From: Terriglobia bacterium | Lineage (GTDB): Bacteria > Acidobacteriota > Terriglobia > JAIQFV01 | Direction: 5' to 3' | Assembly (NCBI GenBank): GCA_020073085.1 | Contig: JAIQFV010000002.1 | Location: 376,875 to 440,874, forward strand | Length of the DNA stretch: 64,000 nt | Shown here: piece after piece, positions 1,932-61,337 of the stretch | Position numbering within the stretch: position 1 is the stretch's first letter | How the letters are laid out: each line of letters starts with the position of its first letter | Position numbers and translations under genes: made by a program | The notes under the pieces: generated by a model | Seen by the model: the letters and a program-made list of their open reading frames with translations, nothing else | Told to the model about the DNA's origin: nothing | The model's database searches: none

Positions 1932-4403
1932 ATGCTCAGTAAAATCACCAGTTATCAATTCTCCGAGTTCGTTTTAGACGTCGCAGAACGCTGTCTGAAA
2001 AAGGAAAGCCAGCAGATCTATCTGCCCCCGAAGACCTTTGCAACCCTCTTGTACTTAATTGAACGGCCTGGCCGCCTCGTCAAGAAAGAGGAACTTCTCG
2101 ACGACCTCTGGCCGGATGCCGAGGTGACCGAGAACGCGTTGACCCGATGTATCAAGGAAGTCCGCGAGGCGCTTCAGGATGATGTGCATGACCCCCGCTA
2201 CATCAAGACCGTCCCCCGGGTGGGATACAAGTTCATCGCTGAAGTGGAGCCGGTTCGAGAAGCCACTCCCGTCACGGTCGTCGAGGAGGAACTGACTGCG
2301 ATGAGGGTGAAGGTCACGGATGAAGTGAATGGGGAGTTGCCATCCCCTCCTGACACCCGGACGCTCCCTGCGGAATCGTCCATGCTCGCGCTACCTGCCG
2401 CACCCGAAGGCCGGCTGAATCGATCCCGTTGGAAGGGCGCCGTTGGCATTGCCTTGACAGTTTTCACGGTATTGGCAGGGGCCTGGTATTACACCCGCGG
2501 ACGCAAGGCCTCCTTGGGTTTTGCGGAACGCGACTGGGTCCTGATCGCGGACTTTGAGAATCTCACCGGGGAAAAGGTGTTTGACGCGGCACTGCGAACG
2601 GCGTTGGAACGTGAACTGAGCCGCTCTCGTTACGTAAACTACGTGCCTCAGGGAAGAGTCTTCGACACCCTCGCTCTGATGAAACGCAGTGCCGATACCC
2701 GGGTTAATGAATCCGTGGGCCGAGAAGTGTGCTTGCGAGACGGGAATATCCGGGCACTTCTGGTGGGTGCCATCCAGCAGATCGGTGGTATCTACGCCAT
2801 CAACTTGAAGGTGATCGATCCGAAAACAGGGGTAGCGGTGAACAGTCTGGCCGAAGAAGCGGCGAATTTACAGGGGGTTCTCCCCGCGATTCGCCGACTG
2901 GCGGTGACGCTGCGAGAGACACTGGGCGAATCACTGGCTTCCATTTCCAAATCGGATCAGCAACTGGAACGGGTGACCACGCCTTCACTGGAGGCGTTGG
3001 AGGCTTATTCGAAGGGATTGCGTTTGAACGAGCAAGTTCAGTGGCCACAGGCGCTGGTTTTTCTTGATCAGGCTGTTGAACGGGACCCCAACTTTGCCAT
3101 GGCTCACTGGGCTCGCGGCTGGACGCATCATTGGACGCGAAGGCCATTCGTGGCAGATTTCAATCGGGCCGCCGAGCTGGTGGGTGGGGTCACCGATCGG
3201 GAGAAGTACACCATTCTGGGAACGCAAGCGCTCTACTGTTTCGGCGATCTCCCTCGGGCCATTGAAATCCAGGAACGCCTTCTTCAGTTGTATCCCGACG
3301 ATTACCATGCGAACGAGACCGTCGGTCGGCTCTATCTGGCGTTGGGAGATATGTCGCGATGGAGAGAGTGCTCTAAAAAAAGCGAGCGCATCCGTCCCAA
3401 CTTTACAGGCAATCACTTTGAGAACGCCGTCGTCGCACTCTTTTCGGAGAGTGACGTCGAAAGGTATTATTCGGAATCCATGCAAGTTCTCGCCCTGAAC
3501 CCCAATTACCCCGGAGGAGGCCCGCACGTGGCGGACCCCGTTCGGGACTGGATGCGTGGTGACGTGGCTCAGGCGCAGGAGAAAATTTCCAAATTCCGTG
3601 CGGGGGAAATGGCTTCGGCCTTGGGCCCGGCCTTTCAAATAAGCGTCCGCCCCTTTCTGGCCCGCTTCTATCTCTTCATCGGAAAACCGGAGGTGGCACT
3701 CGAGCTGCTTGAAACGACCCGTGGAATGGCGCCGCTAAACGCGACCGTCGATTTTTCAAAATACTGGCAACTGGAAAGAGCACTCATCTATCGAGAGCAA
3801 GGCAATGTCCGTGAATTTGAGCGCTTGGCCGGTAGCGCCGCATCGGAAGGAGTGGGAATCTCCCGGGTGGAAGCCCTCGGATGGCTGGCCATTGCTTCGG
3901 CCCAATCAGGTCGCTCCAATCAGGCCCTTGCCTTTCAAAATGAGCTTCTGAAAGAAGACCGCCTCCCGCCCGTTGGTTTTTTTAGTCCGCCGTTGCCTCG
4001 GGAGTTGGAACGTGCCAAACGCGCCTTTAGCCTTCAGATCGAGGGAGAAGTCGCGCTGAAAGACGGAAACCTGGATCAGGCAATTTCTCGCTTCAAGGGA
4101 GTGATCGATCTGGTTCCGCCTCAAGGGGTGTTTTTCACGACCAACCTTCAACCGCAGTTGTTTTTCGTGGCAAATCAATCACTGGCCGAGGCATTCGAAA
4201 AGAGAGGCGAGTGGGGGGAGGCGGTCAAAGCCGACGAAGCGATTCTCGCACAAAAGACTCAGACTATCGGAGTTACTGGAGCAGCACAGATTTGGGTGAA
4301 GGCGTTGAACTCCGCGGGCGAGGCCCTTGAGAAGATGGGAGAGACGTCACGGGCGGCCGTCTACCACGAGCAGTATCGCCAATTGCGGCCGGGGAGCAGC
4401 TAA
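1932..4403 (+). CDS. membrane-anchored winged-helix transcriptional regulator (CadC/ToxR-like, OmpR/PhoB-type DNA-binding domain) with periplasmic TPR-like domain
   Basis: N-terminal sequence with conserved W and RVGYKF typical of trans_reg_C winged helix; single TM segment (AVGIALTVFTVLAGAWYY); long C-terminal region; alternative GTG start at 1908. Confidence 0.7.
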   Translation: MLSKITSYQFSEFVLDVAERCLKKESQQIYLPPKTFATLLYLIERPGRLVKKEELLDDLWPDAEVTENALTRCIKEVREALQDDVHDPRYIKTVPRVGYKFIAEVEPVREATPVTVVEEELTAMRVKVTDEVNGELPSPPDTRTLPAESSMLALPAAPEGRLNRSRWKGAVGIALTVFTVLAGAWYYTRGRKASLGFAERDWVLIADFENLTGEKVFDAALRTALERELSRSRYVNYVPQGRVFDTLALMKRSADTRVNESVGREVCLRDGNIRALLVGAIQQIGGIYAINLKVIDPKTGVAVNSLAEEAANLQGVLPAIRRLAVTLRETLGESLASISKSDQQLERVTTPSLEALEAYSKGLRLNEQVQWPQALVFLDQAVERDPNFAMAHWARGWTHHWTRRPFVADFNRAAELVGGVTDREKYTILGTQALYCFGDLPRAIEIQERLLQLYPDDYHANETVGRLYLALGDMSRWRECSKKSERIRPNFTGNHFENAVVALFSESDVERYYSESMQVLALNPNYPGGGPHVADPVRDWMRGDVAQAQEKISKFRAGEMASALGPAFQISVRPFLARFYLFIGKPEVALELLETTRGMAPLNATVDFSKYWQLERALIYREQGNVREFERLAGSAASEGVGISRVEALGWLAIASAQSGRSNQALAFQNELLKEDRLPPVGFFSPPLPRELERAKRAFSLQIEGEVALKDGNLDQAISRFKGVIDLVPPQGVFFTTNLQPQLFFVANQSLAEAFEKRGEWGEAVKADEAILAQKTQTIGVTGAAQIWVKALNSAGEALEKMGETSRAAVYHEQYRQLRPGSS

Positions 4404-4645
4404 GGTGTCAGGTATCAGGTGCCGGGTGTCAGAATGGAGCTATCAGCGATCAGCGCTCAGCTTTCAGCGGTCAGCTATCAGCTTGCAAGTTCAAAGCAGC
4501 CCTTGCAATGTCCAGCGGTTGGCTCCGGGACTGGAAGCCCGCTCTTCTAAAATATACCTCCCTAGTTTGTACAGGGGGCAGATGGCTGAGATCTGGTAGT
4601 GATCGCTGATAGCTGACGGCTGACCGCTGAAAGCTGACCGCTGCC
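4404..4645. repeat. bipartite intergenic element: inverted low-complexity arms (CAGCTATCAGC flavour) around a unique core
   Basis: Left arm about 4434-4482 (tatcagcgatcagcgctcagctttcagcggtcagctatcagc) pairs with right arm about 4597-4643 (gtagtgatcgctgatagctgacggctgaccgctgaaagctgaccgctg); fills the whole gap between convergent stops at 4403 and 4646. Confidence 0.75.
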
Positions 4646-8152: not shown

Positions 8153-8282
8153 CGATATTAATACAAACGTCTTTGAACATGTTACAAAATTGTGCATGAT
8201 TGAACGTGGGGGCGTCCGCAGCGGCGGACGCCCCTAATCCGAAAATTTCGCAATTACACCTTGTAACTCTATTTCCAACGTT
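8153..8282. repeat. about 130 bp repeat, copy 1 (contains an 11 bp-stem GC hairpin)
   Basis: About 80% identical over about 130 bp to 61073-61205, including ...aatac-aacgtc-ttgaa-atg-tacaaaat-gtgc...gattgaacgt, the hairpin GGGGCGTCCGC-agcg-GCGGACGCCCC and tgtaactcta. Confidence 0.7.
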
Positions 8283-8611
8283 TGGGCTAGCCGTAAACGG
8301 GGCCGTTTGCAAAACATTCAGTTCAGCCTCGATTGGGCCTGCTCCCACATGAGTGACCCGGTTGGATGACGCGCTGCAGCGGCGACCCATGATAATCACC
8401 TGAAACCGAGAGTTTGGCCGATCGTCAGTCGCCTCCGGCCCTGGCATGGTCCGGAATGCGGAAATCGGTCAAGCTTGTCCCTGGATTTTGCTCCTCCTTG
8501 CCTTCTTCGGTGAAAACCACGCGGATCTGAAGTAGAATGCCGAGGGAGCGTTCGTCCATTTGGACCTCGTGCTCCCTCCACAAACTAAAAATTAACACAG
8601 AGAGAATCACT

Positions 8612-9037
8612 ATGAATGATCATTCACAAAAGAAAACGATCTGGCGGCTTTTTTCACTGGCACTCTCATTCGTCATGATAACTGTACTGGCCGCAAGTTT
8701 ATCGCCGGCCCAGGGAAGGTACGGAGGAGAGAGGGAGAAGGACAAGAAGAAAGAAGAGGAGAAACCGCAGTTTCCTTTTCAGAGGTTTAAAGGCACGATC
8801 AACACCGTCAAGCTGGAAGAACGACGATTTCTGCTGGACACCAGTGAAGGGTTCACGGTGCTCGTCCAGGTCGACGATAAGACCAAGATCAAGCACCGGA
8901 AGGAAAAGAAAGGCGGACCCGGCGTGCTCTTTGCCGATTTGAAGAAGGGCGACATCGTGGAGGTCAGCGGGCAATTACCTCCAACCCGCATCCTGCAGGC
9001 GGAGAAAATCTTTCTTGAAGCGGCGGACAAAAAGTAA
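8612..9037 (+). CDS. hypothetical secreted protein
   Basis: Signal peptide (LFSLALSFVMITVLAASLSPAQG), Lys/Glu-rich linker, small C-terminal domain; start chosen at ATG 8612. Confidence 0.45.
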   Translation: MNDHSQKKTIWRLFSLALSFVMITVLAASLSPAQGRYGGEREKDKKKEEEKPQFPFQRFKGTINTVKLEERRFLLDTSEGFTVLVQVDDKTKIKHRKEKKGGPGVLFADLKKGDIVEVSGQLPPTRILQAEKIFLEAADKK

Positions 9038-9153
9038 TCTTCAGCGTGAATGGGTTTTCCCGGGGCACGAAAAGGCATCAGGGAACAGCATTCGCGGGTC
9101 TTGTGCATGCTTGTGACAGAGAACTTGGTGTTTCTTGTACACGGAGGGAGCTG

Positions 9154-10590: not shown

Positions 10591-10795
10591 AACAGGTGCC
10601 AGTTGTCGGTGAAGAGCAGTCAGCATTCAGCTCTCAGCCATCAGAAAACCCTATTGGGGCGACTAACGGGGTCTATTTCGAATTCTAGGCTGATCAGTCT
10701 CCCATTCAGATTCTTGGTCTACTGGTGTCAACTGATCGCTGAGGGTTGAGAGCTACCCACGGGCAACTGACAACTGAGAACTGACAACTTTCTTC
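10591..10795. repeat. bipartite intergenic element (CAGTTGTCAG / TCAGC flavour)
   Basis: Left arm about 10591-10645, right arm about 10724-10795 (caactgacaactgagaactgacaactt); the right arm overlaps the last roughly 13 codons of the ORF ending at 10753. Confidence 0.65.
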
Positions 10796-12517: not shown

Positions 12518-12752
12518 AAGAAGTTGTCAGTTCTCGGTTCTCAGTTGTCGGTAAGAGCTTTCAGCTATCAGCCACCAGCTTTTGGCGGGAGGCTTACTGG
12601 GGGTTGTAAGCATGGTTCGAAGCAGCAATTGACCGCTGATTGGAAATCAGGTCCTTGAACAAGAAGGCGATCCTCTGGTTCGGTTGCTGATAGCTGACCG
12701 CTGATAGCCATTACTGAGAACTGACAACTGAGAACTGACAACTTACTTCAGG
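12518..12752. repeat. bipartite intergenic element (CAGTTGTCAG flavour), best-preserved example
   Basis: Left arm 12518-12579 (aagttgtcagttctcggttctcagttgtcggtaagagctttcagctatcagcc) is the near reverse complement of right arm 12684-12752; unique core about 12580-12683. Confidence 0.8.
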
Positions 12753-15169: not shown

Positions 15170-16873
15170 ATGATGAGGAACTTGGACGCCGCGAGCTTTT
15201 GCGATCGATATTCAAGGGCGTTCGTTGTCCTCTTGCTGCTCCTTTTCTTCTTCCACGCCGTAACCCAGATTCCCCGGAAATCTCTGACCGTCGATGAGCC
15301 CGCCAACGTTGCGGTGGGCTATGCATTCCTGAAAACCGGCGATGTCAACCTGGGGGAAGACACTCCGCCGCTGGTGCGTGTGATCAGTGCCCTGCCGCTG
15401 CTGGCCCTGCACCCCCGGCTGCCGCTGGAAGATGCGAGCTGGCGCGACCGAATCCACTGGAAATTCGGAAACGTGTTTTTCGATTCCAACCCGCCCCCGC
15501 TCTACTTCCGGATGATTTTTTGGTCCCGGGTGCCTATGGTGCTTATTGCCTGTGCCCTGGGAGGATGGGTCTATTTTGTGGCGCGTCGTTTCTTCGGGAG
15601 CTGCGCCGCTTTGGTTGCGCTGTTTTTGTTTACCCTCGAGCCCAACATCCTCGCCAACGCGATGCTGGTCAAGAACGACCTCGCCTCGGCTCTCGTTTAC
15701 TTGTGGTTTTTCTATGCGGCATGGCTCTATCTGCTTTCTCCCGATCTGCGGAGAGCATTGCACGTGGCCGCGGTGCTGGCGATCGGGATGATGACAAAAT
15801 TCTCATTGTTGTTGCTTTTCGGCCTCGCAGGGATCGTTTTCATCACTGCATTTCTTCTCCATCGGGAGAGGAGATCCTCGAAACCCACCATCGCTCACCC
15901 CACTATTCTCAAGAACCACCTGATGCATGGCCTGGCAGGGGCGGTCCTGATTATCGGGATCGCGAACCTCGGATATGGGCTGGAGCTGTTCCGCCCGCAC
16001 CTTTCGCATGTACCGCTCCATTCCAGTGTATCTCGAGTTCTGGTGCATCTTCTTCCCATAACGCTGCTGGCAGGAATCGAGAGCGTGTTTCAAGTCACGG
16101 GTACGGGTTGGCCGGCCTTTCTGGCGGGGCACTATTCGAGTACCGGTTGGTGGTATTACTATCCGCTTGCCCTTGCCATCAAACTCCCGATCCCGATCCT
16201 TGTTTTTTTCATCTCCGGGTTTGTCTACGGTCTCTATGTGGTCGTCCGGGACAGGGATTGGCGGTGGTTTCTTCTTTTGCTCGCCGTAGTCATCTATCTC
16301 GTTCCCAGCCTGGGCAGCAAGGTGAACGCCGGCCTGCGCCATATTCTCCCGATCTTCCCGCCGATGTGCATCCTGGCGGGCGCGATGGTCGCACGGATCC
16401 TTGAGCGGGGTCGGAAACCCGTGAAGGTGGCGGTTGCAATCTTACTGGTGGCGCTGCCGATTTTGGTGTTGAGGACATATCCGGATTATCTGGCCTATTT
16501 CAACGAGATCATCGGAGGACCACGGAACGGATGGAAATACCTGAGCGATTCCAATTTGGACTGGGGGGAAGAACTCCCTCGCCTGGCTTCCTATGCTCGT
16601 GAGAATCAGATCGATGATCTCAAGCTGGCCTATCTGGGCGGGGGCAATCCGGAGTTTTATGGGATGCACGCTACGATGTTGGAGGTTCCTTACGCCTGGG
16701 AGCCGCACGATCTCCCTCCGAAAATGTCTCCCTCATCAGGAACTTATGCGATCAGCGTGACGCTTCTCCAGGGCACTGTCTTCGGAGATCGTCGTGACTA
16801 TTTTCAATATTTTCGGGATCGAGAGCCGATGGCTCGGCTGGGGGAGTCGATTTTTGTTTTTCAAGTGCATTAG
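15170..16873 (+). CDS. glycosyltransferase family 39 / ArnT-like membrane glycosyltransferase
   Basis: About 12 predicted TM helices with a conserved DEP motif in the first loop (LTVDEPANVAVGYAF), typical of ArnT/PMT-type enzymes. Confidence 0.7.
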   Translation: MMRNLDAASFCDRYSRAFVVLLLLLFFFHAVTQIPRKSLTVDEPANVAVGYAFLKTGDVNLGEDTPPLVRVISALPLLALHPRLPLEDASWRDRIHWKFGNVFFDSNPPPLYFRMIFWSRVPMVLIACALGGWVYFVARRFFGSCAALVALFLFTLEPNILANAMLVKNDLASALVYLWFFYAAWLYLLSPDLRRALHVAAVLAIGMMTKFSLLLLFGLAGIVFITAFLLHRERRSSKPTIAHPTILKNHLMHGLAGAVLIIGIANLGYGLELFRPHLSHVPLHSSVSRVLVHLLPITLLAGIESVFQVTGTGWPAFLAGHYSSTGWWYYYPLALAIKLPIPILVFFISGFVYGLYVVVRDRDWRWFLLLLAVVIYLVPSLGSKVNAGLRHILPIFPPMCILAGAMVARILERGRKPVKVAVAILLVALPILVLRTYPDYLAYFNEIIGGPRNGWKYLSDSNLDWGEELPRLASYARENQIDDLKLAYLGGGNPEFYGMHATMLEVPYAWEPHDLPPKMSPSSGTYAISVTLLQGTVFGDRRDYFQYFRDREPMARLGESIFVFQVH

Positions 16874-16904: not shown

Positions 16905-17105
16905 AGTAGAGGTGATAGGTAATAGGTTATAGGAAGAAACAGGAAACCTGACGTTGGCTGTTTGAGGAATGAAGCGAGCGTCGTTGTCTGTTGCGGAGAG
17001 TTCAACTCCCGTACCGAGCTTCTAAGACCTCTCGCCGACCTCTGTCTTTGTAGTTCATTGGGTGAAACCTAACACCAAACACCTAATACCTATCACCTCT
17101 TTCCT
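16905..17105. repeat. bipartite intergenic element (GGTGATAGG / AATAGG flavour)
   Basis: Left arm gaggtgataggtaataggttataggaagaaacaggaaacc pairs with right arm ggtgaaacctaacaccaaacacctaatacctatcacctc. Confidence 0.7.
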
Positions 17106-18017: not shown

Positions 18018-18069
18018 CCACCAGACGATTCAATCATCCGAAGGGCAGTTGCTGTCAGAAGAGAACGGA

Positions 18070-18106
18070 TCGCTATTGCTGACAACTGACAACTGACAAC
18101 CGGCAA
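18070..18106. repeat. single low-complexity arm (GACAACTGACAACTGACAAC), no clear partner
   Basis: CAGTTGTCAG-type motif directly downstream of the htpX stop. Confidence 0.5.
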
Positions 18107-18973
18107 CTATTCCAACCGCCTGCCCGTCAGGCGTTCAATGCGCTTGGCGATGGGAGGGTGGGTCGAAAAGAGATTTCCGATAGCGCTCATCAGGCCCCCG
18201 CCGGTGAAGGGTTGAATGATAAACAAGTGGGCCGTCGAGGGGGAAGCCACCATCGGAATCCGCTTCGAGTAGGCATCCAGCTTTTGAAGCGCGCTCGCCA
18301 GTCCCTCAGGGTTGTGCGTCATTTCAGCGCCACTGGCATCGGCCTGGTATTCGCGAGACCGTGAAATCGCCAGTTGGATCAAGAGGGCGGCAATCGGCGC
18401 TACGATAATCATCAACAGACCGGAAAGCACGCCGCCACCCCGTTCGTTGTCGCTGCTGCGTCCTCCAAAACCCCCAAACAACTCAGCCCAGTAAGCCATG
18501 CGTGCAATCATCGTTAACGCGCCGGCAATGGTCGCTGCCACGGCGCTGATCAGGATGTCGCGGTTCTTCACATGGCTGAGTTCATGGGCCAGCACACCCT
18601 CAAGTTCCCGCTCGTCCAGGATTTTCAAAATACCCTGGGTGACGGCAACTGAGGCATGGTCGGGATTCCGTCCCGTGGCAAAGGCGTTGGGTGAATCCGT
18701 CGGAATCATATAAATCTTCGGCATCGGCAGTTGATTGTTGGCCGCGAGCCGTTCGCAGATGCGATAGACCATGGGCGCTTCTTCGCGTGAAATGGGAACG
18801 GCGCCATTCATCGCGAGGGCGATCTTGTCGGACCAGAAATAACTTGCGAAATTCATCACAACGGCGAGTCCGAGGCCCAGCATCAAGCCGTTTTGACCGC
18901 CAACGGCCTCACCTACAAACAACAGCAAGCCTGTCAGCAAGCCCAACAGTAAAACCGTTTTCAGTCCATTCAT
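18107..18973 (-). CDS. htpX: zinc metalloprotease HtpX (M48 family)
   Basis: HELSH zinc-binding motif, several TM helices, conserved C-terminal region; ATG 18973 (MNGLKT). Confidence 0.85.
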
Positions 18974-19083: not shown

Positions 19084-19270
19084 GGTATCAGGTGTCGGGC
19101 AAGCTGTCAGCTTTCAGCTCTCAGCCATCAGCAATCAGCTTCGGACTTATTGAATGGGTGTATCCAAAGATGAATAGGCTTCTAATTTCATGAAATCCCG
19201 TCTCATTAAGCAGCAGCTCCTCTTCCTTGTGTTATCTGACAGCTGATAGCTGATCGCTGAAAGCTGGTCT
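19084..19270. repeat. bipartite intergenic element (CAGCTATCAGC flavour)
   Basis: Left arm ggtatcaggtgtcgggcaagctgtcagctttcagctctcagccatcagcaatcagc pairs with right arm gttatctgacagctgatagctgatcgctgaaagctggtc. Confidence 0.7.
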
Positions 19271-20679: not shown

Positions 20680-20899
20680 AGGGGGAAGGGAATAGATGAT
20701 AGGGAATAGGGAATAGGTGGAGAAGCTGGCAGCAAATAGGCGATTAGGGTTAGATAATAAGTGCCATGACCTCGTGCACGAATTCTAGTGAGACGTGGTG
20801 CAGCAACGGTCAAACCATTTGAACTCCATACCTAAAACCCATTCTCACTCACCCGTCACCTACCTGCTATTTCCTATCACCTATCATCTATTCCCTCAC
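20680..20899. repeat. bipartite intergenic element (GGGAATAGG flavour)
   Basis: Left arm gggaagggaatagatgatagggaatagggaataggtg pairs with right arm cacctacctgctatttcctatcacctatcatctattccctc. Confidence 0.75.
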
Positions 20900-24236: not shown

Positions 24237-24440
24237 AAGAGTTGTCAGTTCTCAGTTGTCGGTTCTCAGAATGCAGTAGCTAGTTCTAAGCCCTCATTTA
24301 CTGATCGGCGGGGAGAGTGAGGCACAATATCGCCAAGGTCAAGGGCTCATCGGTTACAACCAAATCTCTTGTCCTGGCCTTTGCTGACAACTGGGAACTG
24401 ACAACTGAGAACTGCTTTCCGGCAACTGAGGACTGACAAC
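24237..24440. repeat. bipartite intergenic element (CAGTTGTCAG flavour)
   Basis: Left arm gttgtcagttctcagttgtcggttctcag pairs with right arm ctgacaactgggaactgacaactgagaactg...gactgacaac; lies between the rlmI-like stop and the Hsp20 promoter. Confidence 0.75.
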
Positions 24441-24441
24441 T

Positions 24442-30165: not shown

Positions 30166-32547
30166 ATGGCTAGTACCGAGATCGAGCACAAGATTCAACC
30201 TTCGGAGATATTTCCGCTTTCATCCGTCCCGTTTGAGCCCAAACTTTCGGACAACGCGATCAAGGTCCTGGAACGCCGGTACCTTATCAAAGGGGCGGAC
30301 GGAAGGGTTGTAGAAACGCCGGCGGAAATGTTTCGAAGGGTGGCCATTAACCTATCCCAGGCGGAGTTGCTCTATGGCGCCACCGAGGAACAGCGCCAGG
30401 ACATCGAGAATCAGTTCTATGCCTCCATGGCCGCTTTGGACTTCATTCCCAATTCCCCCACGATGATGAATGCCGGGCGAGAGCTGCAACAGCTCTCCGC
30501 GTGCTTTGTGTTGCCGGTTCCGGATTCCATTGACGGGATTTTTGAGGCGGTTAAGCAGGCGGCCCTCATTCATAAGACCGGCGGAGGGACGGGCTTCGCC
30601 TTTTCGCGCATCCGGCCGGCCAACGACATCGTCATGACCACTCGTGGCGTGGCCAGCGGGCCCGTGAGTTTCATGAAGGTGTTTGACGCAGCCACCGAAA
30701 CCATCAAGCAGGGCTCCACGCGCCGCGGGGCCAACATGGGAATCCTGCGAGTGGATCATCCCGATATTCTGGAGTTCATCGCGATGAAGGCGGACATGAA
30801 GACGCTGACCAACTTCAATATCTCCGTGGCCATCACGGAGAGATTCATGGAGGCGGTGGAAAAGAATGAAGATTACGAACTCGTCAATCCCAAGACGAAG
30901 GAGTTGGAAGGGAAACTCAATGCGCGGGACGTGTTCAACCTGTTAGTCCGGAATGCGTGGAAGAACGGAGATCCGGGGATCATCTTCCTCGACCGCATCA
31001 ACCGCGCCCACACGACTCCGCACGTGATGCCGATTGAGTCCACGAACCCGTGCGGTGAGCAGCCGCTGATGCCGAACGAGAGCTGCAACCTGGGTTCGAT
31101 TAATCTCGGGAACATGTTGAACGAAAACAGCAGCCGCCTCGACTATGAACACCTGCGCCGGGTCATTCAGCTGTCCGTTCGCTTTCTCGACAACGTGGTG
31201 GACATGAACCGGTATCCGGTCGACGCCATCCGCGAGGTGACGCTGGGCTCCCGGAAGATCGGGTTGGGGGTCATGGGTTGGGCCGATATGCTCTATCGGA
31301 TGGAGATCCCCTATAACAGCGAAAAGGCCATTCAACTGGCGGAGACGGCGATGGCGTTCATTGAGGATGAGGGGCATCGCTGCTCTCAAATGCTGGCGGA
31401 GGAGCGGGGGGTCTTCCCCTACTGGAAGGGCTCCACTTACGAAAAGCGCGGAATCAAGATGCGCAACTCCACCGTCACGACGATTGCCCCCACTGGAACG
31501 ATTTCGATTATTGCCGGCTGCTCCGGTGGAATCGAGCCCCAGTTTGCATTGGTATTTTTCCGCAATGTCATGGACAACACCAAGCTTCCGGAGGTTCACG
31601 GGTACTTCAGGCAGGTGTTGGAACGCGAAGGCCTCTACTCGGAAGAACTGATGGAAAAGATCGCCGAGCACGGTTCGGTCCAGGACATGGAGGCCATCCC
31701 GGAAGCGCTCCGCCGGGTCTTCGTCACCTCGCATGACATCACGCCGGAATGGCACATTCGGATGCAGGCGGCGTTCCAGAAATACACCGACAACGCGGTT
31801 TCGAAGACCGTGAACTTCCCCTCCAGCGCCACCCCCGAAGAGGTGGAGCGGGTTTACATGCTGGCTTACGAGCTGGGCTGCAAGGGCGTCACGATCTACC
31901 GCGATGGAAGTCGCGACAATCAGGTCCTCAATGTGGGCCGGATGAAGGAAGGAAAGGTCGCCAAGGAGGCGGCCCAGCCCCCCGTTGCGGTCCAGGAACC
32001 GGCGACGAAAACGATCCCGTCCGGAGCGTTCGTCCGCCCGGACTCGATGGATGCCAGCCCGACGTTGAAACCGCGCCCGGATGTCGTCAATGGGAAAACC
32101 TATCGACAGCAAACCCCCCTGGGGACGGCGTTTGTCACGGTGAATTCGAACGGGCATTTGGAGCCCTTTGAGGTTTTTACGAATGTGGGCAAGGCGGGCA
32201 GCGATACCGCGGCGGTGGCCGAAGCCATCGGGAGGCTGGTGTCGCTCGTGCTCCGACTGCCATCCAGTCTTTCACCCACTGATCGGATGAAGGAAATTGT
32301 CAAACAGCTTTCCGGCATTGGTGGAAAACACTTCGTCGGGTATGGTCAGAAAAGCGTCCGGTCATTGCCGGATGCCGTGGCACAGGTGCTGGCACAGCAT
32401 CTCGGCCTGGTGGAGCCGGATCTGCCGGCGACGAATGGAACCATTTCCACGCGGATTGGTGATCTGTGTCCGGTATGCGGAAATGCGACGTTCGTCTATC
32501 AGGAAGGCTGCCAGAAGTGTTATTCCTGCTCTCATTCTGAGTGTTGA
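30166..32547 (+). CDS. nrdJ: adenosylcobalamin-dependent ribonucleoside-diphosphate reductase (class II, NrdJ)
   Basis: Class II RNR N-terminal region and active-site blocks (NPCGEQPL, CNLGSINL), C-terminal Cys-rich tail; CAGGAGGG ribosome-binding site. Confidence 0.9.
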   Translation: MASTEIEHKIQPSEIFPLSSVPFEPKLSDNAIKVLERRYLIKGADGRVVETPAEMFRRVAINLSQAELLYGATEEQRQDIENQFYASMAALDFIPNSPTMMNAGRELQQLSACFVLPVPDSIDGIFEAVKQAALIHKTGGGTGFAFSRIRPANDIVMTTRGVASGPVSFMKVFDAATETIKQGSTRRGANMGILRVDHPDILEFIAMKADMKTLTNFNISVAITERFMEAVEKNEDYELVNPKTKELEGKLNARDVFNLLVRNAWKNGDPGIIFLDRINRAHTTPHVMPIESTNPCGEQPLMPNESCNLGSINLGNMLNENSSRLDYEHLRRVIQLSVRFLDNVVDMNRYPVDAIREVTLGSRKIGLGVMGWADMLYRMEIPYNSEKAIQLAETAMAFIEDEGHRCSQMLAEERGVFPYWKGSTYEKRGIKMRNSTVTTIAPTGTISIIAGCSGGIEPQFALVFFRNVMDNTKLPEVHGYFRQVLEREGLYSEELMEKIAEHGSVQDMEAIPEALRRVFVTSHDITPEWHIRMQAAFQKYTDNAVSKTVNFPSSATPEEVERVYMLAYELGCKGVTIYRDGSRDNQVLNVGRMKEGKVAKEAAQPPVAVQEPATKTIPSGAFVRPDSMDASPTLKPRPDVVNGKTYRQQTPLGTAFVTVNSNGHLEPFEVFTNVGKAGSDTAAVAEAIGRLVSLVLRLPSSLSPTDRMKEIVKQLSGIGGKHFVGYGQKSVRSLPDAVAQVLAQHLGLVEPDLPATNGTISTRIGDLCPVCGNATFVYQEGCQKCYSCSHSEC

Positions 32548-32591
32548 TGTAGTGCCCCGATGTAGTGCCGATGTAGTGTCGATGTAGTGCC
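32546..32591. repeat. 4 x 11-12 bp tandem repeat (GATGTAGTGCC) overlapping the nrdJ stop codon
   Basis: gatgtagtgcccc gatgtagtgcc gatgtagtgtc gatgtagtgcc. Confidence 0.7.
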
Positions 32592-32604
32592 GACTTCAGT
32601 CGGC
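32589..32604 (+). terminator. short hairpin (GCCGAC-TTCA-GTCGGC) after nrdJ, possible terminator
   Basis: Perfect 6 bp stem with 4 nt loop followed by an AT-rich but not U-run sequence. Confidence 0.25.
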
Positions 32605-43484: not shown

Positions 43485-43489
43485 AAGCA

Positions 43490-43675
43490 AGTTGCCAGTT
43501 GCCAGTTTTCAGTTGTCAGTGGGAAGGTGCAAGAGTCGGCGGCCGGAAGACGGGAACCGGAAGCCAGAAGTCAGAGGTCAGAAACAAAAGGCGTGGAATT
43601 GTAGACTTTGAACTTTGAACCTGGAACTTTGAACCGGGGTTTCAGGACTTTGAACTTGAAACTTTGAACTGTTCT
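43490..43675. repeat. low-complexity intergenic block (GTTGCCAGTT, GGAAG/CCAGAAG and CTTTGAAC motif runs)
   Basis: Three different simple-motif runs fill the gap between convergent stops; arms are not clearly complementary. Confidence 0.6.
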
Positions 43676-50556: not shown

Positions 50557-50780
50557 CAAGTCTTAAAATCCAAAATCCAAATTCCAAAATCCAAACAAAA
50601 CCCAAAAAGAACAAATTCCAAGAGGCAGAAGACCGACAATCCAGTGAGGGCATTAACGGAAAAATGCCGCTTCACCTGTTGTCACGGTTTTGTGCTGTTC
50701 CGTCTAAGATTTGTTATTTGGGGTTTGAGAACTTGCTGGGCAATTAATACTTGTTTGGAATTTGGTATTTGGATTTTCCG
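50557..50780. repeat. bipartite intergenic element (AAATCCAAAATCC / TTTGGAATTTGG flavour)
   Basis: Left arm cttaaaatccaaaatccaaattccaaaatccaaac pairs with right arm ttgtttggaatttggtatttggattttcc. Confidence 0.7.
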
Positions 50781-52510: not shown

Positions 52511-52735
52511 CAGGTAATAGGGGATAGGTTTTAGGTGATAGGGAACAGGTTCCAGGCAATAGGGAAACAAGACGAGCGATCAATCCTCGGGACCAATAAC
52601 TCAGCCCGAACGATCAGTCGACGGCACATCTCTTGCATCGTTCCCCCAAGCCACCCCTGCCACCGATCATCAATTACCTACTACCTATTCCCTACTACCT
52701 ACCACCTATTTCCTATCACCTACTACCCATCCCTA
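52511..52735. repeat. bipartite intergenic element (GGTAATAGG / AATAGG flavour) between sdhA and sdhC
   Basis: Left arm ggtaataggggataggttttaggtgatagggaacagg pairs with right arm cctactacctattccctactacctaccacctatttcctatcacc. Confidence 0.75.
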
Positions 52736-54597: not shown

Positions 54598-54815
54598 TCC
54601 AATAAAACAAATTCCAGAATCCAATATCCAAAGTCCAAATAAAAACCAAATTCCAATGCACAAACTCCAAGGGAAGCCGATTCGCAATGCTTATATTTCG
54701 GTTCCCTTAAGGGCTTCACAGATGGTGGCCGGTCGTACCCATTCCTTCGTTTTAAGTGTTTTGAATTTGGTCCTTGGAATTTATTTGGACTTTGGATATT
54801 GGATTTTGGAATTTC
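54598..54815. repeat. bipartite intergenic element (TCCAATATCCAAAG / TTTGGATATTGGA flavour)
   Basis: Left arm tccaataaaacaaattccagaatccaatatccaaagtccaaataaa pairs with right arm ttatttggactttggatattggattttggaatttcc; immediately followed by the tandem array. Confidence 0.75.
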
Positions 54816-55250
54816 CACCGATGGGATGTTCAAAATTCAGACTGAAGGTGGCGGGTTTGGAATTTGTTTATTGGGATTTGGTTCTTATTTGGGTTTTGGA
54901 GTTTGGAATTTGGATTTTCCGCCAATGGGATGTTCAAAATTCAGACTGAAGGTGGCGGGTTTGGAATTTGCTTATTGGGATTTGGTTCTTATTTGGATTT
55001 TGGAGTTTGGAATTTGGATTTTCCGCCGATGGGATGTTCAAAGTTTGGACTGAAGGTGGCGGGTTTGGAATTTGCTTGCTGGAATTTGGATTTTGGAGTT
55101 TGGAATTTGGATTTTCCGCCGATGGGATGTTCAAAATTCAGACTGAAGGTGGCGGGTTTGGAATTTGCTTGCTGGAATTTGGATTTTGGAGTTTGGAATT
55201 TGGATTTTCCGCCGATGGGATGTTCAAAATTCAGACTGAAGGTGGCGGGT
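54816..55250. repeat. tandem array: five copies of a 36 bp core at 93-104 bp spacing
   Basis: Core GATGGGATGTTCAAAATTCAGACTGAAGGTGGCGGG recurs at about 54820, 54924, 55028, 55121 and 55214; inter-core sequence is low-complexity TTTGGAATTTGG...GGATTTTCC and nearly identical between units. Confidence 0.85.
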
Positions 55251-58310: not shown

Positions 58311-58325
58311 ACCCAGTATTTTCCT

Positions 58326-58440
58326 GGATTGGAAATTGGAAAGGTCTGACCCGAGAATTGGGATTGGAAATTGGAAAGGTCTGACCCGAGAATTCTTGCT
58401 GGATTGGAAATTGGAAAGGTCTGACCCGAGAATTCTTGTT
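58326..58440. repeat. 3 x about 40 bp tandem repeat (GGATTGGAAATTGGAAAGGTCTGACCCGAGAATTCTTGCT)
   Basis: Three near-identical units at about 58326, 58361 and 58401. Confidence 0.85.
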
Positions 58441-59961: not shown

Positions 59962-60475
59962 CAGGCCCGAAGGGCTGTCAGACTGTAGCCCCACCTGAAG
60001 CTCCGTCCCGCGTTCTTTGCGGGGCGGAGCGAGGGTGGGGTGCCAGTCTCCCCAATGATATCCGAGCCCCGCTGGCGGGGCGAAAGAATCTACCGAATGG
60101 TTCTTCGGACAACCCTACAATAATCCCCTGGCATGTTCCTCTCCGCACTGCTTTCTCTACCCCACGTTACCCTTACTCGTTTCACGAATTAGTGGACCCC
60201 AATTTCACCAGTCGAATTCTCGCAACGATATCGGAACAGTCGAGTTCTTCCTGGCAGCGGGAGCGCCCTCGGAAGATCTTGTTTCAGTGAGAGTGGCGTC
60301 CTCATTCCGAGTGCATGGAATCGAATATGTCATTCGGTGTACTTCGACCTGACGACATTGTTTCGCCCCGCAAGCGGGGCTCTCACATTTTCTCACCTCG
60401 GTACCCCACCCTCGCTCTCCGCCTACGGCGGACGGAGCTTCAGGTGGGGCTACAATCTGACAGCCCTTCGGGCCT
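59962..60475. mobile_element. about 515 bp non-coding element bounded by about 85 bp near-perfect terminal inverted repeats (MITE-like or structured RNA)
   Basis: Left end ggcccgaagggctgtcagactgtagccccacctgaagctccgtcc...cggagcgagggtggggtgcc is the reverse complement of the right end (60400-60475) apart from a few mismatches and one indel; each end also folds locally; sub-terminal hairpins GCCCCGC-tgg-CGGGGC and GCCCCGC-aa-GCGGGGC; no credible ORF. Confidence 0.5.
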
Positions 60476-61072: not shown

Positions 61073-61205
61073 TCGACTAATACGAACGTCGTTGAAAATG
61101 TACAAAATCGTGCGCGATTCAACGTAGGGGCGCATAGTCCGCCGCGGCGGACGCCCCTACAGCGAAGATTCCACAACTACCCCATGTAACTCTAATTCTA
61201 ACGTG
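61073..61205. repeat. about 130 bp repeat, copy 2 (GC hairpin with 5 nt bulge)
   Basis: Aligns with 8153-8282; hairpin GGGGCG-catag-TCCGCCGC/GCGGCGGACGCCCC and shared tgtaactcta; begins about 25 bp upstream of the start codon of the 60659-61048 gene. Confidence 0.7.
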
Positions 61206-61337
61206 TGTATTAAAAGGCCAGTAAAATCTCACAGGATACACGTGAATGAATGGCCATAATCAAATTGTTCCTGGAGGGACACCTCATCGACCAACCATGA
61301 AGAAGACCGCTCATTCAGCGTGACCGCATTCAAGGAT

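Follow-up and report, generated by a model that had tools for sequence, protein, structure and literature searches.

Paired heptanucleotide arrays form palindromic cassettes at gene boundaries of an uncultured acidobacterium

Introduction

The intergenic region 12518-12752, downstream of glpX in a 64-kb stretch of DNA (contig JAIQFV010000002.1; in the following, the window) from an uncultured member of the Acidobacteriia/Terriglobia, is filled by a palindromic element, whose two arms are arrays of tandem 7-nt units in inverted orientation, separated by a core. The element is a member of a family. A preliminary description of the window had listed twelve such bipartite elements at gene boundaries; this family proved to be real, since the layout was present at all listed loci and was strong at 10 of the 12, with z values for arm-arm complementarity of 6.1-24 (against 100 dinucleotide shuffles). 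At the two loci listed as degenerate (18043-18108 and 43485-43675) the layout was found too, but the inverted repeat was not significant (z about 1). As the arms are heptanucleotide arrays, the elements belong to a class which has been described previously, namely the pairs of simple sequence repeats (SSRs) in Xanthomonas and the paired sites in Geobacter, and it is very probable that they are the acidobacterial counterpart of these palindromes. For identity and function combined, i.e., extragenic palindromic heptamer cassettes which form long hairpins at gene ends, we would estimate a probability of about one half.

A larger sample of 975 kb was examined besides, which consisted of the window, three relatives and loci derived from a scan for three CAGTTST units in species-representative genomes, and which contained 457 period-7 arrays in total. 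The identity of coding DNA to the window was 76-86% for the relatives L011 (GCA_041490505.1) and L012, and 70-82% for L013 and L015; the genome L137 is GCA_041494885.1. The matches listed in the scan included at least 110 loci in one unrelated metagenome-assembled genome (MAG), Acidobacteria bacterium PL23a_bin.88, and a further few loci in one Anaerolineae MAG and one Marinifilum MAG, where the arrays that were fetched were mostly unpaired.

Results

Arms: For every arm a period of 7, or of its multiples 14 or 21, was reported by Tandem Repeats Finder, and a lag scan of the window yielded 33 arrays at period 7, versus 3, 0, 1, 0 and 1 at periods 6, 8, 9, 10 and 11. The arms in the window, as delimited by the repeat finder, are 24-65 nt long, 72-93% complementary and 89-152 nt apart. 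The focal element starts directly after the stop codon of glpX with the units GTTGTCA GTTCTCG GTTCTCA GTTGTCG, an extra G and a second array, TTCAGCT ATCAGCC ACCAGC; after a core of 104 nt follow GCTGATA GCTGACC GCTGATA and then ACTGAGA ACTGACA ACTGAGA ACTGACA AC, and the 3' end of the element lies 16 nt ahead of the next start codon. Ten independent assemblies, derived from different samples, agreed in every base of this focal sequence, and several contigs ended within the arms; thus the element is real, its arms are repeated elsewhere in the genome, and an assembly artefact is excluded. Nor are the arms merely a local expansion, in view of these contig breaks, the arrays in relatives and the at least 110 loci in another acidobacterial genome.

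The units form three complementarity groups: a CAG-type (CAGTTGT/CAGGTGT plus CAGCNNT), a TAGG/AGG-type and a TCCAAAW-type. More than ten flavours of heptamer were distinguished across the larger sample, including TCCAAAW, which is devoid of AG. The position of NAG (mostly CAG) is constant, while the other four positions of the heptad drift between flavours. A G3 tract is present only in the GGGAATA and CAGTGGG flavours, and there is none in CAGTTGT, CAGCTAT or TCCAAAW. The two arms of one cassette are of the same flavour group, which results in a block-diagonal matrix of complementarity, and where several flavours are present their layers are mirrored, as A-B-core-B'-A' or, in L015, as A-B-C-core-C'-B'-A'. 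Copy numbers are unequal between the two sides of a cassette and between relatives; perfect arrays reach up to 13 units.

The polarity of the arrays is nearly invariant. Neighbouring arrays not more than 300 nt apart were scored by their AG versus CT counts, a measure which is inapplicable to the TCCAAAW flavour; in the 975 kb an AG-type array was followed by a CT-type array ('><') 114 times, the reverse ('<>') was found 3 times (p = 3e-30). The TCCAAAW flavour is self-consistent, its C-rich arm being 5' at both window loci. The arm layout equals its own reverse complement, so that NAG-N4 (mostly CAG) is the reading of the 5' arm whichever strand is taken; the general form can be written as 5'-(NAG-N4)n, core, (N4-CTN)n-3', and two or three flavours are frequently nested within it as mirror images. 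A stop-codon logic, with 5' arms free of stop codons and 3' arms carrying TGA, was considered and dropped, as it is true for the CAG flavours and reversed for the TAGG flavours.

Cores and gene context: Element length was 67-413 nt (median 165) in the larger sample and 187-246 nt in the window; the corresponding values for cores were 4-253 nt (median 65) and 89-154 nt. The uniqueness of cores, as claimed originally, was corroborated within the window, where they are unrelated to one another, and a comparison of 80 cores for shared sequence gave only chance-like matches of 23-34 nt; it was not upheld for the relatives, since L015 and L011 each hold one core at two loci, in both cases in neighbouring cassettes. 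A metagenome scan for additional members of this shared core family gave 0 matches. No enrichment of promoters or terminators was detected in cores, and the folding z was within about +/-1.4 for 9/10 window cores. A structured small RNA in the core, as had been envisaged, is therefore disfavoured, the cores being unstructured and evolving near the rate of third codon positions (see below). A hidden extension of the palindrome into the core, an idea which came from the minus-strand fold of the 52511 element (-108 vs -72 kcal/mol), was rejected, because 1/10 cores was self-complementary and the core folding z was about 0.

The gaps between genes are filled almost completely, with a median of 3 nt from stop codon to arm in co-directional gaps and of 7 nt from arm to the next start codon. 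In all window elements the purine/G-rich array is on the sense strand by the stop codon and the complement lies ahead of the next open reading frame (ORF). In the window, 12/31 of the convergent or co-directional gaps with a length of 60 nt or more held cassettes, and 0/8 of the divergent ones (one-sided p = 0.036); a general association with gene 3' ends was rejected, its significance being confined to the window. Just outside cassettes, towards the following gene, there are two strong promoter-like sites: a sigma-70-like promoter at 19074-19047 (-), immediately outside the 19084-19270 cassette, and a site at 24228-24200 (-), which adjoins the 24237-24441 cassette.

Comparison with relatives: The glpX gap contains a cassette in 4/4 lineages, with differing flavours and cores which cannot be aligned; in acidobacteria with GlpX proteins 77-79% identical, no heptamer arrays were present in 21 kb, and the gaps downstream of glpX measured 43-73 nt. 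Between the amidohydrolase and hemerythrin genes there is a cassette in the window and in L011, and an empty spacer of 31 nt in L015. This was no clean insertion: about 60 nt of native sequence were replaced, and the window arm took the place of the last ~11 codons of hemerythrin, so that the right arm now encodes the final 13 codons of the ORF, which ends within it (10753-10795). The hemerythrin is 203 aa long as called in L011 (arm region 9004-9120) versus 177 aa in the window; since CAG-type 5' arms are free of stop codons in every frame, ORFs run into them, and gene callers lengthen the L011 protein.

Two cores were conserved well enough for comparison between species, and both (2/2) were inverted. 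The core of the M48 peptidase/radical-SAM gap is 77% identical over 83 nt between the window and L011 in inverted orientation (z = 26 inverted vs 0.8 direct), and the core of the amidohydrolase gap is 74-77% identical over 73-90 nt between the window and L137, on the opposite strand. Such core inversion is the expected product of recombination between the two arms, which would leave polarity unaffected. The identity of third codon positions between these genomes is 0.63-0.65 (about 36% divergence); as that of the cores is similar, they would appear to be near-neutral, once the upward bias inherent in local alignment is considered. Cassettes also occur in copies: two in L015, 3.5 kb apart, are about 90% identical across arms and core, and two neighbouring cassettes in L011 have one core family in common. 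A 'growth from centre', to which an extra AAGC layer at two L015 loci had pointed, was undermined, since those cassettes are mutual copies.

The genes of L137 and L011 are 97.7-99.1% identical over 17 kb, and the alignment breaks at 4/5 cassettes. Unrelated cassettes are present in the swapped gaps, e.g., [CAGGTGT][CAGCNNT] versus [TAGGTAA], and the swapped tract reaches a few bases into both flanking genes. Mismatches amount to 3-8 per 100 nt in the 100-500 nt of coding sequence that adjoin swapped cassettes, compared to 0-1 farther off (e.g., L137 6207-6700 and 5700-6020), where the two genomes are 99-100% identical; judged from the alignments, these clusters could be recombination imports, linked old polymorphism or the result of error-prone repair. 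In the amidohydrolase gap L137 possesses the window-type allele, and L011 and L138, which are 93.8% identical and differ by unit-size indels, have another one in common. From this sharing across genomes we infer that cassette alleles are older than the genomes and were moved by recombination.

One cassette is located in frame within the L011 gene for the CCA-adding enzyme (PolyA_pol; 1800-2030 within 987-2591). It has the structure [CAGTGGG]x4 [CAGAAGY], core and mirror, and gives rise to an insert of 85 residues between MDETK and YPxxILAW. The L013 ortholog carries at the same site (4460-4530) an insert of 32 residues, which corresponds to a one-armed array.

Folding as RNA: The expectation of a long stem with a large loop in transcripts was confirmed by folding of arm-core-arm units. 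Minimum free energies of the focal element were -107 and -103 kcal/mol for the two strands, with z of -8.8 and -10.7, and the plus-strand z of the ten main loci ranged from -1.8 to -9.0. A first impression, from the window only, was that of a better folded sense strand (G-U pairs 65 vs 36); this G-U excess, which would have indicated selection at the RNA level, was rejected on 37 co-directional elements (see below). Considered as DNA, the palindromy is symmetrical.

Discussion

Known systems: Arrays of the heptamer GGGAATC form 70-75 convergent pairs per genome in Xanthomonas and are mostly transcribed; the G-rich array is found on the sense strand not more than 50 bp from a stop codon or overlapping it, or antisense upstream of ORFs, and few arrays lie between divergent ORFs (Rehm et al. 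2015, PMC4692102). Array length varies between related species of Xanthomonas, while the type of pair is constant (PMC4692102). The present cassettes share with these pairs the 7-nt units, the convergent arrays on opposite strands, the G-rich arm by the stop codon and the complement before the next ORF, and the 20680 element even uses GGGAATA, which is close to GGGAATC. In Xanthomonas there is essentially one flavour, which was interpreted as G-quadruplex-forming, whereas more than ten flavours, most of them G4-incapable, exist here. The Xanthomonas study did not describe nested layers in mirror order, inversion of cores, allelic cassettes or in-frame copies, and the phylum is a different one.

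In Geobacter metallireducens, classes 1-3 of paired sites on opposite strands consist of 3-5 tandem units of 7, 8 or 9 nt (Aklujkar et al. 2009, PMC2700814). Their spacing is variable, they occur between operon genes such as proBA, and they are absent from the sister species; they were proposed as binding sites of a global regulator or of integration host factor (IHF)/HU, and two families of insertion sequences (IS) insert at a fixed distance from them (PMC2700814). The Geobacter heptamer MTYCTGA contains the CTGA of the window 3' arms, a likeness which is based on the published description and leaves polarity out of account; unlike the window arrays, the Geobacter sites include 8- and 9-nt units.

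Direct repeats of TAACTGA are known just before start codons in Beggiatoaceae, Cyanobacteria and Bacteroidetes, and in BOGUAY one indirect repeat was noted in 170 sets (MacGregor 2015, PMC4679880). Heptanucleotides are the most over-represented class of long SSRs in many bacteria, according to Mrazek (2007) as quoted by MacGregor (PMC4679880). TAACTGA is a complement-strand relative of CAGTTAT, and its position before start codons resembles that of the window 3' arms; the CAGTTST flavour occurs also in the Anaerolineae and Marinifilum genomes. Unlike the window cassettes, the arrays of Beggiatoaceae, Cyanobacteria and Bacteroidetes are mostly single and direct. The short tandemly repeated repetitive (STRR) sequences of cyanobacteria were reportedly described by Mazel in 1990 as intergenic tandem heptanucleotides. 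In heterocystous cyanobacteria the STRR heptamers are CCCCAGT, TTGGTCA and CAACAGT. The unit length alone is common to STRR and the present arrays, since the host is an acidobacterium and the units differ. A cyanobacterial origin of the window, to which the heptamers had pointed at first, was rejected, as the nearest relatives of GlpX in the database carry the name MAG Acidobacteriia/Terriglobia. As late as 2022, the role of heptamer repeats was termed unknown in a preprint on Nostoc, which infers an unidentified heptamer-binding partner. A search of the literature revealed no report of paired heptamer arrays for Acidobacteria.

Several other families of repeats can be compared. Repetitive extragenic palindromic (REP) sequences and bacterial interspersed mosaic elements (BIMEs) are extragenic palindromes which lie at the 3' ends of genes and between genes that are co-transcribed, and their RNA hairpins can stabilise upstream mRNA. 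The REP is a conserved unit of 20-40 bp with a GTAG/CGTC tag, mobilised by a REP-associated tyrosine transposase (RAYT). Like REP, BIMEs and REP doublets forming hairpins (REPINs), the cassettes are extragenic, palindromic, high in copy number and assembly-breaking; unlike REP, their arms are heptamer arrays of many flavours, without a GTAG/CGTC tag or a shared palindromic unit. The sole RAYT-like gene found in a relative is an IS200-like Y1_Tnp in L013 (16880-17640; 4e-20), which occupies the gap that holds the GGGAATA cassette in the window and is bordered by three small GC-rich hairpins, arranged as a mirrored set (AGTCCCCCTTGGGGGACT, CCCGCCGGTTCACCGGCGGG, GAGCCCCGTTCACGGGGCTC); similar GAGCCCCGC...GCGGGGC hairpins form a 26-nt inverted pair in the window (60064-60089 and 60357-60382). 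A link to RAYT was rejected, since the hairpins of the L013 gene constitute a separate REP-like family and are not heptamer arrays. CRISPR arrays have direct repeats of 24-48 nt and spacers of similar size, unlike the contiguous 7-mers, inverted arms and one core per element observed here. The initial judgement that the elements are neither REP, CRISPR, attC nor ordinary intrinsic terminators thus stood: no U-tract, no terminator-like enrichment and, with Rfam 15 at the gathering score, 0 matches in the whole window were found, and a scan for tRNA and tmRNA likewise gave nothing. Rickettsia palindromic elements (RPE) lie in frame within genes and possess a conserved consensus, but no heptamer arrays; the palindromic repeat tolerated in frame in the L011 CCA-adding enzyme is reminiscent of them, as one case only. 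The closest architectural match is the eukaryotic foldback transposons, such as FB of Drosophila, whose arms consist of tandem sub-repeats and whose loops are heterogeneous.

Proposed interpretation: The heptamer arrays expand, contract and become homogenised by slippage; the two arms recombine mutually and thereby flip the core; cassettes are at times copied onto other cassettes by gene conversion or duplication; and a whole cassette with a few hundred bases of flank is exchanged between close relatives, resulting in unrelated alleles at one gap. The comparisons above show or directly imply these four processes. Since neither slippage nor arm-arm inversion can change polarity, its singleness is best explained by common founders or by functional constraint, and not by independent origins. 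When transcribed, a cassette would yield an imperfect stem of 30-65 bp at the end of the upstream message, with the core as an unconstrained loop, and this stem might act as a 3'-end barrier, a stabiliser or an insulator between neighbouring genes. This role is put forward tentatively, by analogy with REP/BIME, and may well turn out otherwise; the view of the elements as insulator or terminator modules, one of those suggested at the outset, is plausible.

Several observations weigh against a hairpin function at gene ends. Cassettes in PL23a_bin.88 are present in 12/67 divergent gaps versus 29/271 others, according to crude gene calls based on codon usage. There is no U-tract, and terminator-like sites number 21, with 21.4 expected, in 20 kb; within a coding region, as in the CCA-adding enzyme gene, a cassette cannot be a terminator. 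Arms of the same flavour from other loci pair with a given arm as well as its own partner does, and a locus-specific co-evolution of arm pairs was not supported. In the 37 co-directional elements the sense strand folded better in 17 and worse in 20, with 200 versus 210 G-U pairs, and this equality of sense and antisense provides no evidence of pairing tuned to the transcript. The rapid wholesale replacement of cassettes argues that their exact sequence matters little. Finally, target-site duplications and a transposase were not found (see below), which bears on the question of how cassettes reach new sites.

Alternative explanations: The heptads could serve a dedicated protein as arrays of binding sites, with the facing arrays as a regulated bidirectional barrier or loop anchor. 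On DNA, cooperative ribbon-helix-helix-like binding to 7-bp heptads, or IHF/HU as for Geobacter, would be conceivable; on RNA, a HutP-like reader of NAG-N4 repeats or a cold-shock protein whose site measures ~7 nt. Precedents for readers of heptads are omega, HutP and the cold-shock protein Csp. The strict 7-nt period and the constant NAG among four drifting positions are in line with this proposal, and so is the fixed polarity, which would be expected of a protein filament with an orientation or of a motif required on the first-transcribed arm; a heptamer-binding partner was inferred in the Nostoc study, and Aklujkar et al. proposed binding of a global regulator or IHF/HU to paired 7-, 8- and 9-nt arrays (PMC2700814). 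However, the more than ten flavours, among them TCCAAAW without AG, would require many specificities or a very loose reader, which in turn fails to explain the matching of flavours within a cassette, and there is no candidate protein; we consider this explanation unlikely. Similarly unlikely, in our opinion, is an origin as transposable elements without host function, of the foldback type or of the kind of MITEs (transposable elements of miniature size with inverted repeats), mobilised by an enzyme encoded elsewhere. The resemblance to MITEs such as Correia elements, noticed early, holds with respect to inverted ends, non-coding nature, a size of 100-400 bp and occasional paralogous copies; fixed polarity would be inherited from a founder, and the copied cores of L015 and L011, the in-frame copy, the filled and empty amidohydrolase sites, the absence of elements from the distant relatives and the breaking of assemblies at arms would all be accounted for. 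The resemblance fails in other respects: the longest direct match in an element's own flanks had a mean of 3.9 nt versus 4.0 nt in the cross-locus control, so that no target-site duplications were indicated (although the fuzzy boundaries of the arrays weaken this test), the 80 cores have no interior in common, and no transposase was encoded between arm pairs more than 300 nt apart within the 975 kb, the nearby Y1 transposase being associated with its own REP-like hairpins. In addition, the paralogous copies are all close neighbours, for which gene conversion fits equally well, and the filled site had replaced native sequence.

Cassettes could also be a functionless by-product of mutation, if slippage generated arrays in non-coding gaps and template switching in quasi-palindromes kept the two sides alike. 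The over-representation of heptanucleotide SSRs (Mrazek 2007, in the version given in PMC4679880), arrays extending right up to coding boundaries, unequal copy numbers of the arms, cores which evolve roughly as third codon positions and the lack of strand-specific selection speak for this notion; but independent origins predict both polarities, contrary to the count of 114 to 3, cassettes were kept at orthologous gaps over about 36% third-position divergence despite the deletion bias of bacteria, and divergent gaps in the window are avoided, which makes it quite improbable. A more radical scheme would involve the breakage of a palindrome, addition of heptamers to the 3' ends from a template, in a telomerase-like or rolling-circle manner, and joining over filler DNA, which would become the core. 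On both strands the unit runs 5'-3' in the direction of the core, the layers are mirrored, target-site duplications are absent, native sequence was lost at the filled site, and unrelated cassettes with adjacent clusters of single-nucleotide polymorphisms (SNPs) occur at one gap of near-identical genomes, all of which would fit. Yet cassettes with their cores were inherited across 6-20% genome divergence, so that 'new' alleles need not be freshly made; the replaced tracts extend into both genes in the manner of ordinary recombination imports; an enzyme candidate is missing; and the L015 cassettes with the extra layer are simply mutual copies. Such a mechanism is thus extremely improbable, and very little likelihood can likewise be assigned to the view that the gaps hold alternative, unrelated palindromic alleles which are actively remade by break, templated heptamer addition and capture of filler, and not merely exchanged. 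If it were true, active remaking would amount to a bacterial telomerase-like end-healing activity and would explain polarity, mirrored layers, absence of target-site duplications, loss of native sequence and SNP clusters together.

Elements of the window and other repeats: The coordinates of the cassettes are compiled in Table 1. Housekeeping genes of ordinary kinds surround them in the window, among them glpX, msrA, clpB, hsp20 and the sdh cluster.

Table 1. Heptamer cassettes of the window, with parts, gene context and complementarity of arms.
Element	Gene context	Arms or arrays (units)	Core	Arm pair (repeat finder)	Arm z
4400-4645	convergent gap: BTAD-TPR regulator (+), MsrA/PMSR (-)	4400-4428 (CAGGTGT type), 4437-4484 (CAGCNNT); 4600-4643	4485-4599	33 nt, 91% complementary	15
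10591-10795	convergent gap: amidohydrolase (+), hemerythrin (-)	left 10594-10645; right 10735-10792	10646-10734		6.1
12518-12752 (focal)	between glpX (stop 12517) and DUF2085 gene (start 12764)	left outer 12521-12552 (CAGTTGT/CAGTTCT), left inner 12556-12579 (CAGCNNT); right inner 12684-12708, right outer 12710-12747	12580-12683	65 nt, 80% complementary, 106 nt apart	24
16905-17105	between PMT_2 glycosyltransferase and methyltransferase, both +	16907-16935 (TAGGTNA); 17063-17098	16936-17062		7.8
18043-18108 (degenerate mini-element)	3' end of M48 peptidase gene	left, two units (GGGCAGTTGCTGTCAG); right, four units, 18075-18108 (CTGACAA)	18 nt		1.0, not significant as inverted repeat
19084-19270	between M48 peptidase and radical-SAM gene, both -	left 19084-19141 (CAGGTGT remnant + CAGCNNT); right 19233-19266	19142-19232		9.8
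20680-20899	between radical-SAM gene and ClpB, both -	20687-20720 (GGGAATA/TAGGGAA); 20856-20896	20721-20855	30 nt, 90% complementary	12.5
24237-24441	between HSP20 and PUA-methyltransferase, both -	24239-24269; 24384-24441 (CAGTTGT/CAGTTCT)	24270-24383		11.5
43485-43675 (degenerate)	convergent gap: LolA-like (+), nitroreductase (-)	43485-43523 (CAGTTGC), 43555-43583 (CAGAAGY), 43600-43670 (ACTTTGA)			0.7, not significant
50557-50780	between LssY_C gene and sdhB, both -	50563-50597 (TCCAAAW); 50752-50777	between arms	27 nt, 93% complementary	7.5
52511-52735	succinate dehydrogenase cluster, Sdh_cyt gene/sdhA gap, both -	52512-52566; 52673-52735 (TAGGTNN/TAGGGAA)	52567-52672		20
54598-54815		54608-54670; 54760-54815 (TCCAAAW)		48 nt, 88% complementary	22

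Following the 54598-54815 cassette, a module of 93 bp is repeated in 3.8 tandem copies (91% matches) at 54885-55250. Each module contains a heptamer array of the right-arm type (TTTGGAW) and a hairpin of ~40 nt (CCGCCGATGGG...GGTGGCGGG); the modules are a higher-order duplication beside this cassette.

Other kinds of repeats were noticed in addition. At 748-771 and 855-878 the window contains a perfect inverted repeat of 24 nt (TGTGGGGCAGACGTCCCGTCTGCC), whose arms are 83 nt apart, inside or beside an unannotated ORF of 171 aa without Pfam match. A unit of 35-40 bp is present three times at 58324-58438, each time with ATTGGAAATTGGAAA, in a convergent gap of 486 nt before a VKOR-DsbA gene, and a unit of 11 nt (GATGTAGTGCC) is repeated 4.2 times at 32546-32593, from the stop codon of an ORF of 793 aa. 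The stretches 8159-8284 and 61078-61207 are 79% identical over 131 nt and are not heptamer arrays; they may represent a paralogous small gene or another repeat family. In L013 the M48/radical-SAM gap (15200-15440) holds other short repeats instead, hexamer-like GATCCCGATCCCGACCCCGACGCCGAT and a duplicated CTCGGGGCTACCACTA.

Conclusions

Paired heptanucleotide arrays have been known from Geobacter since 2009 and from Xanthomonas since 2015, as well as from cyanobacteria and Beggiatoaceae, yet the class is unexplained. Interpreted as extragenic palindromic heptamer cassettes at gene ends, the elements of this acidobacterial clade, a far richer case, add to it many flavours, mirrored layering, a quantified polarity, core inversion, cassette copying, allelism and an in-frame copy, which are new. 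Because many flavours are unable to form G4 structures, the G-quadruplex is not the common principle of the class; a polarity of 114:3 is inexplicable by independent slippage, and classical transposition is a poor fit. In practical terms, cassettes fragment metagenome assemblies, and they affect annotation, since they lengthen or replace the ends of genes, as in the hemerythrin tail, or are read as protein, as in the 85-residue insert of the CCA-adding enzyme. The presence of unrelated cassettes at one gap in genomes which are 98-99% identical elsewhere implies that few parts of the genome change as fast as these gaps.

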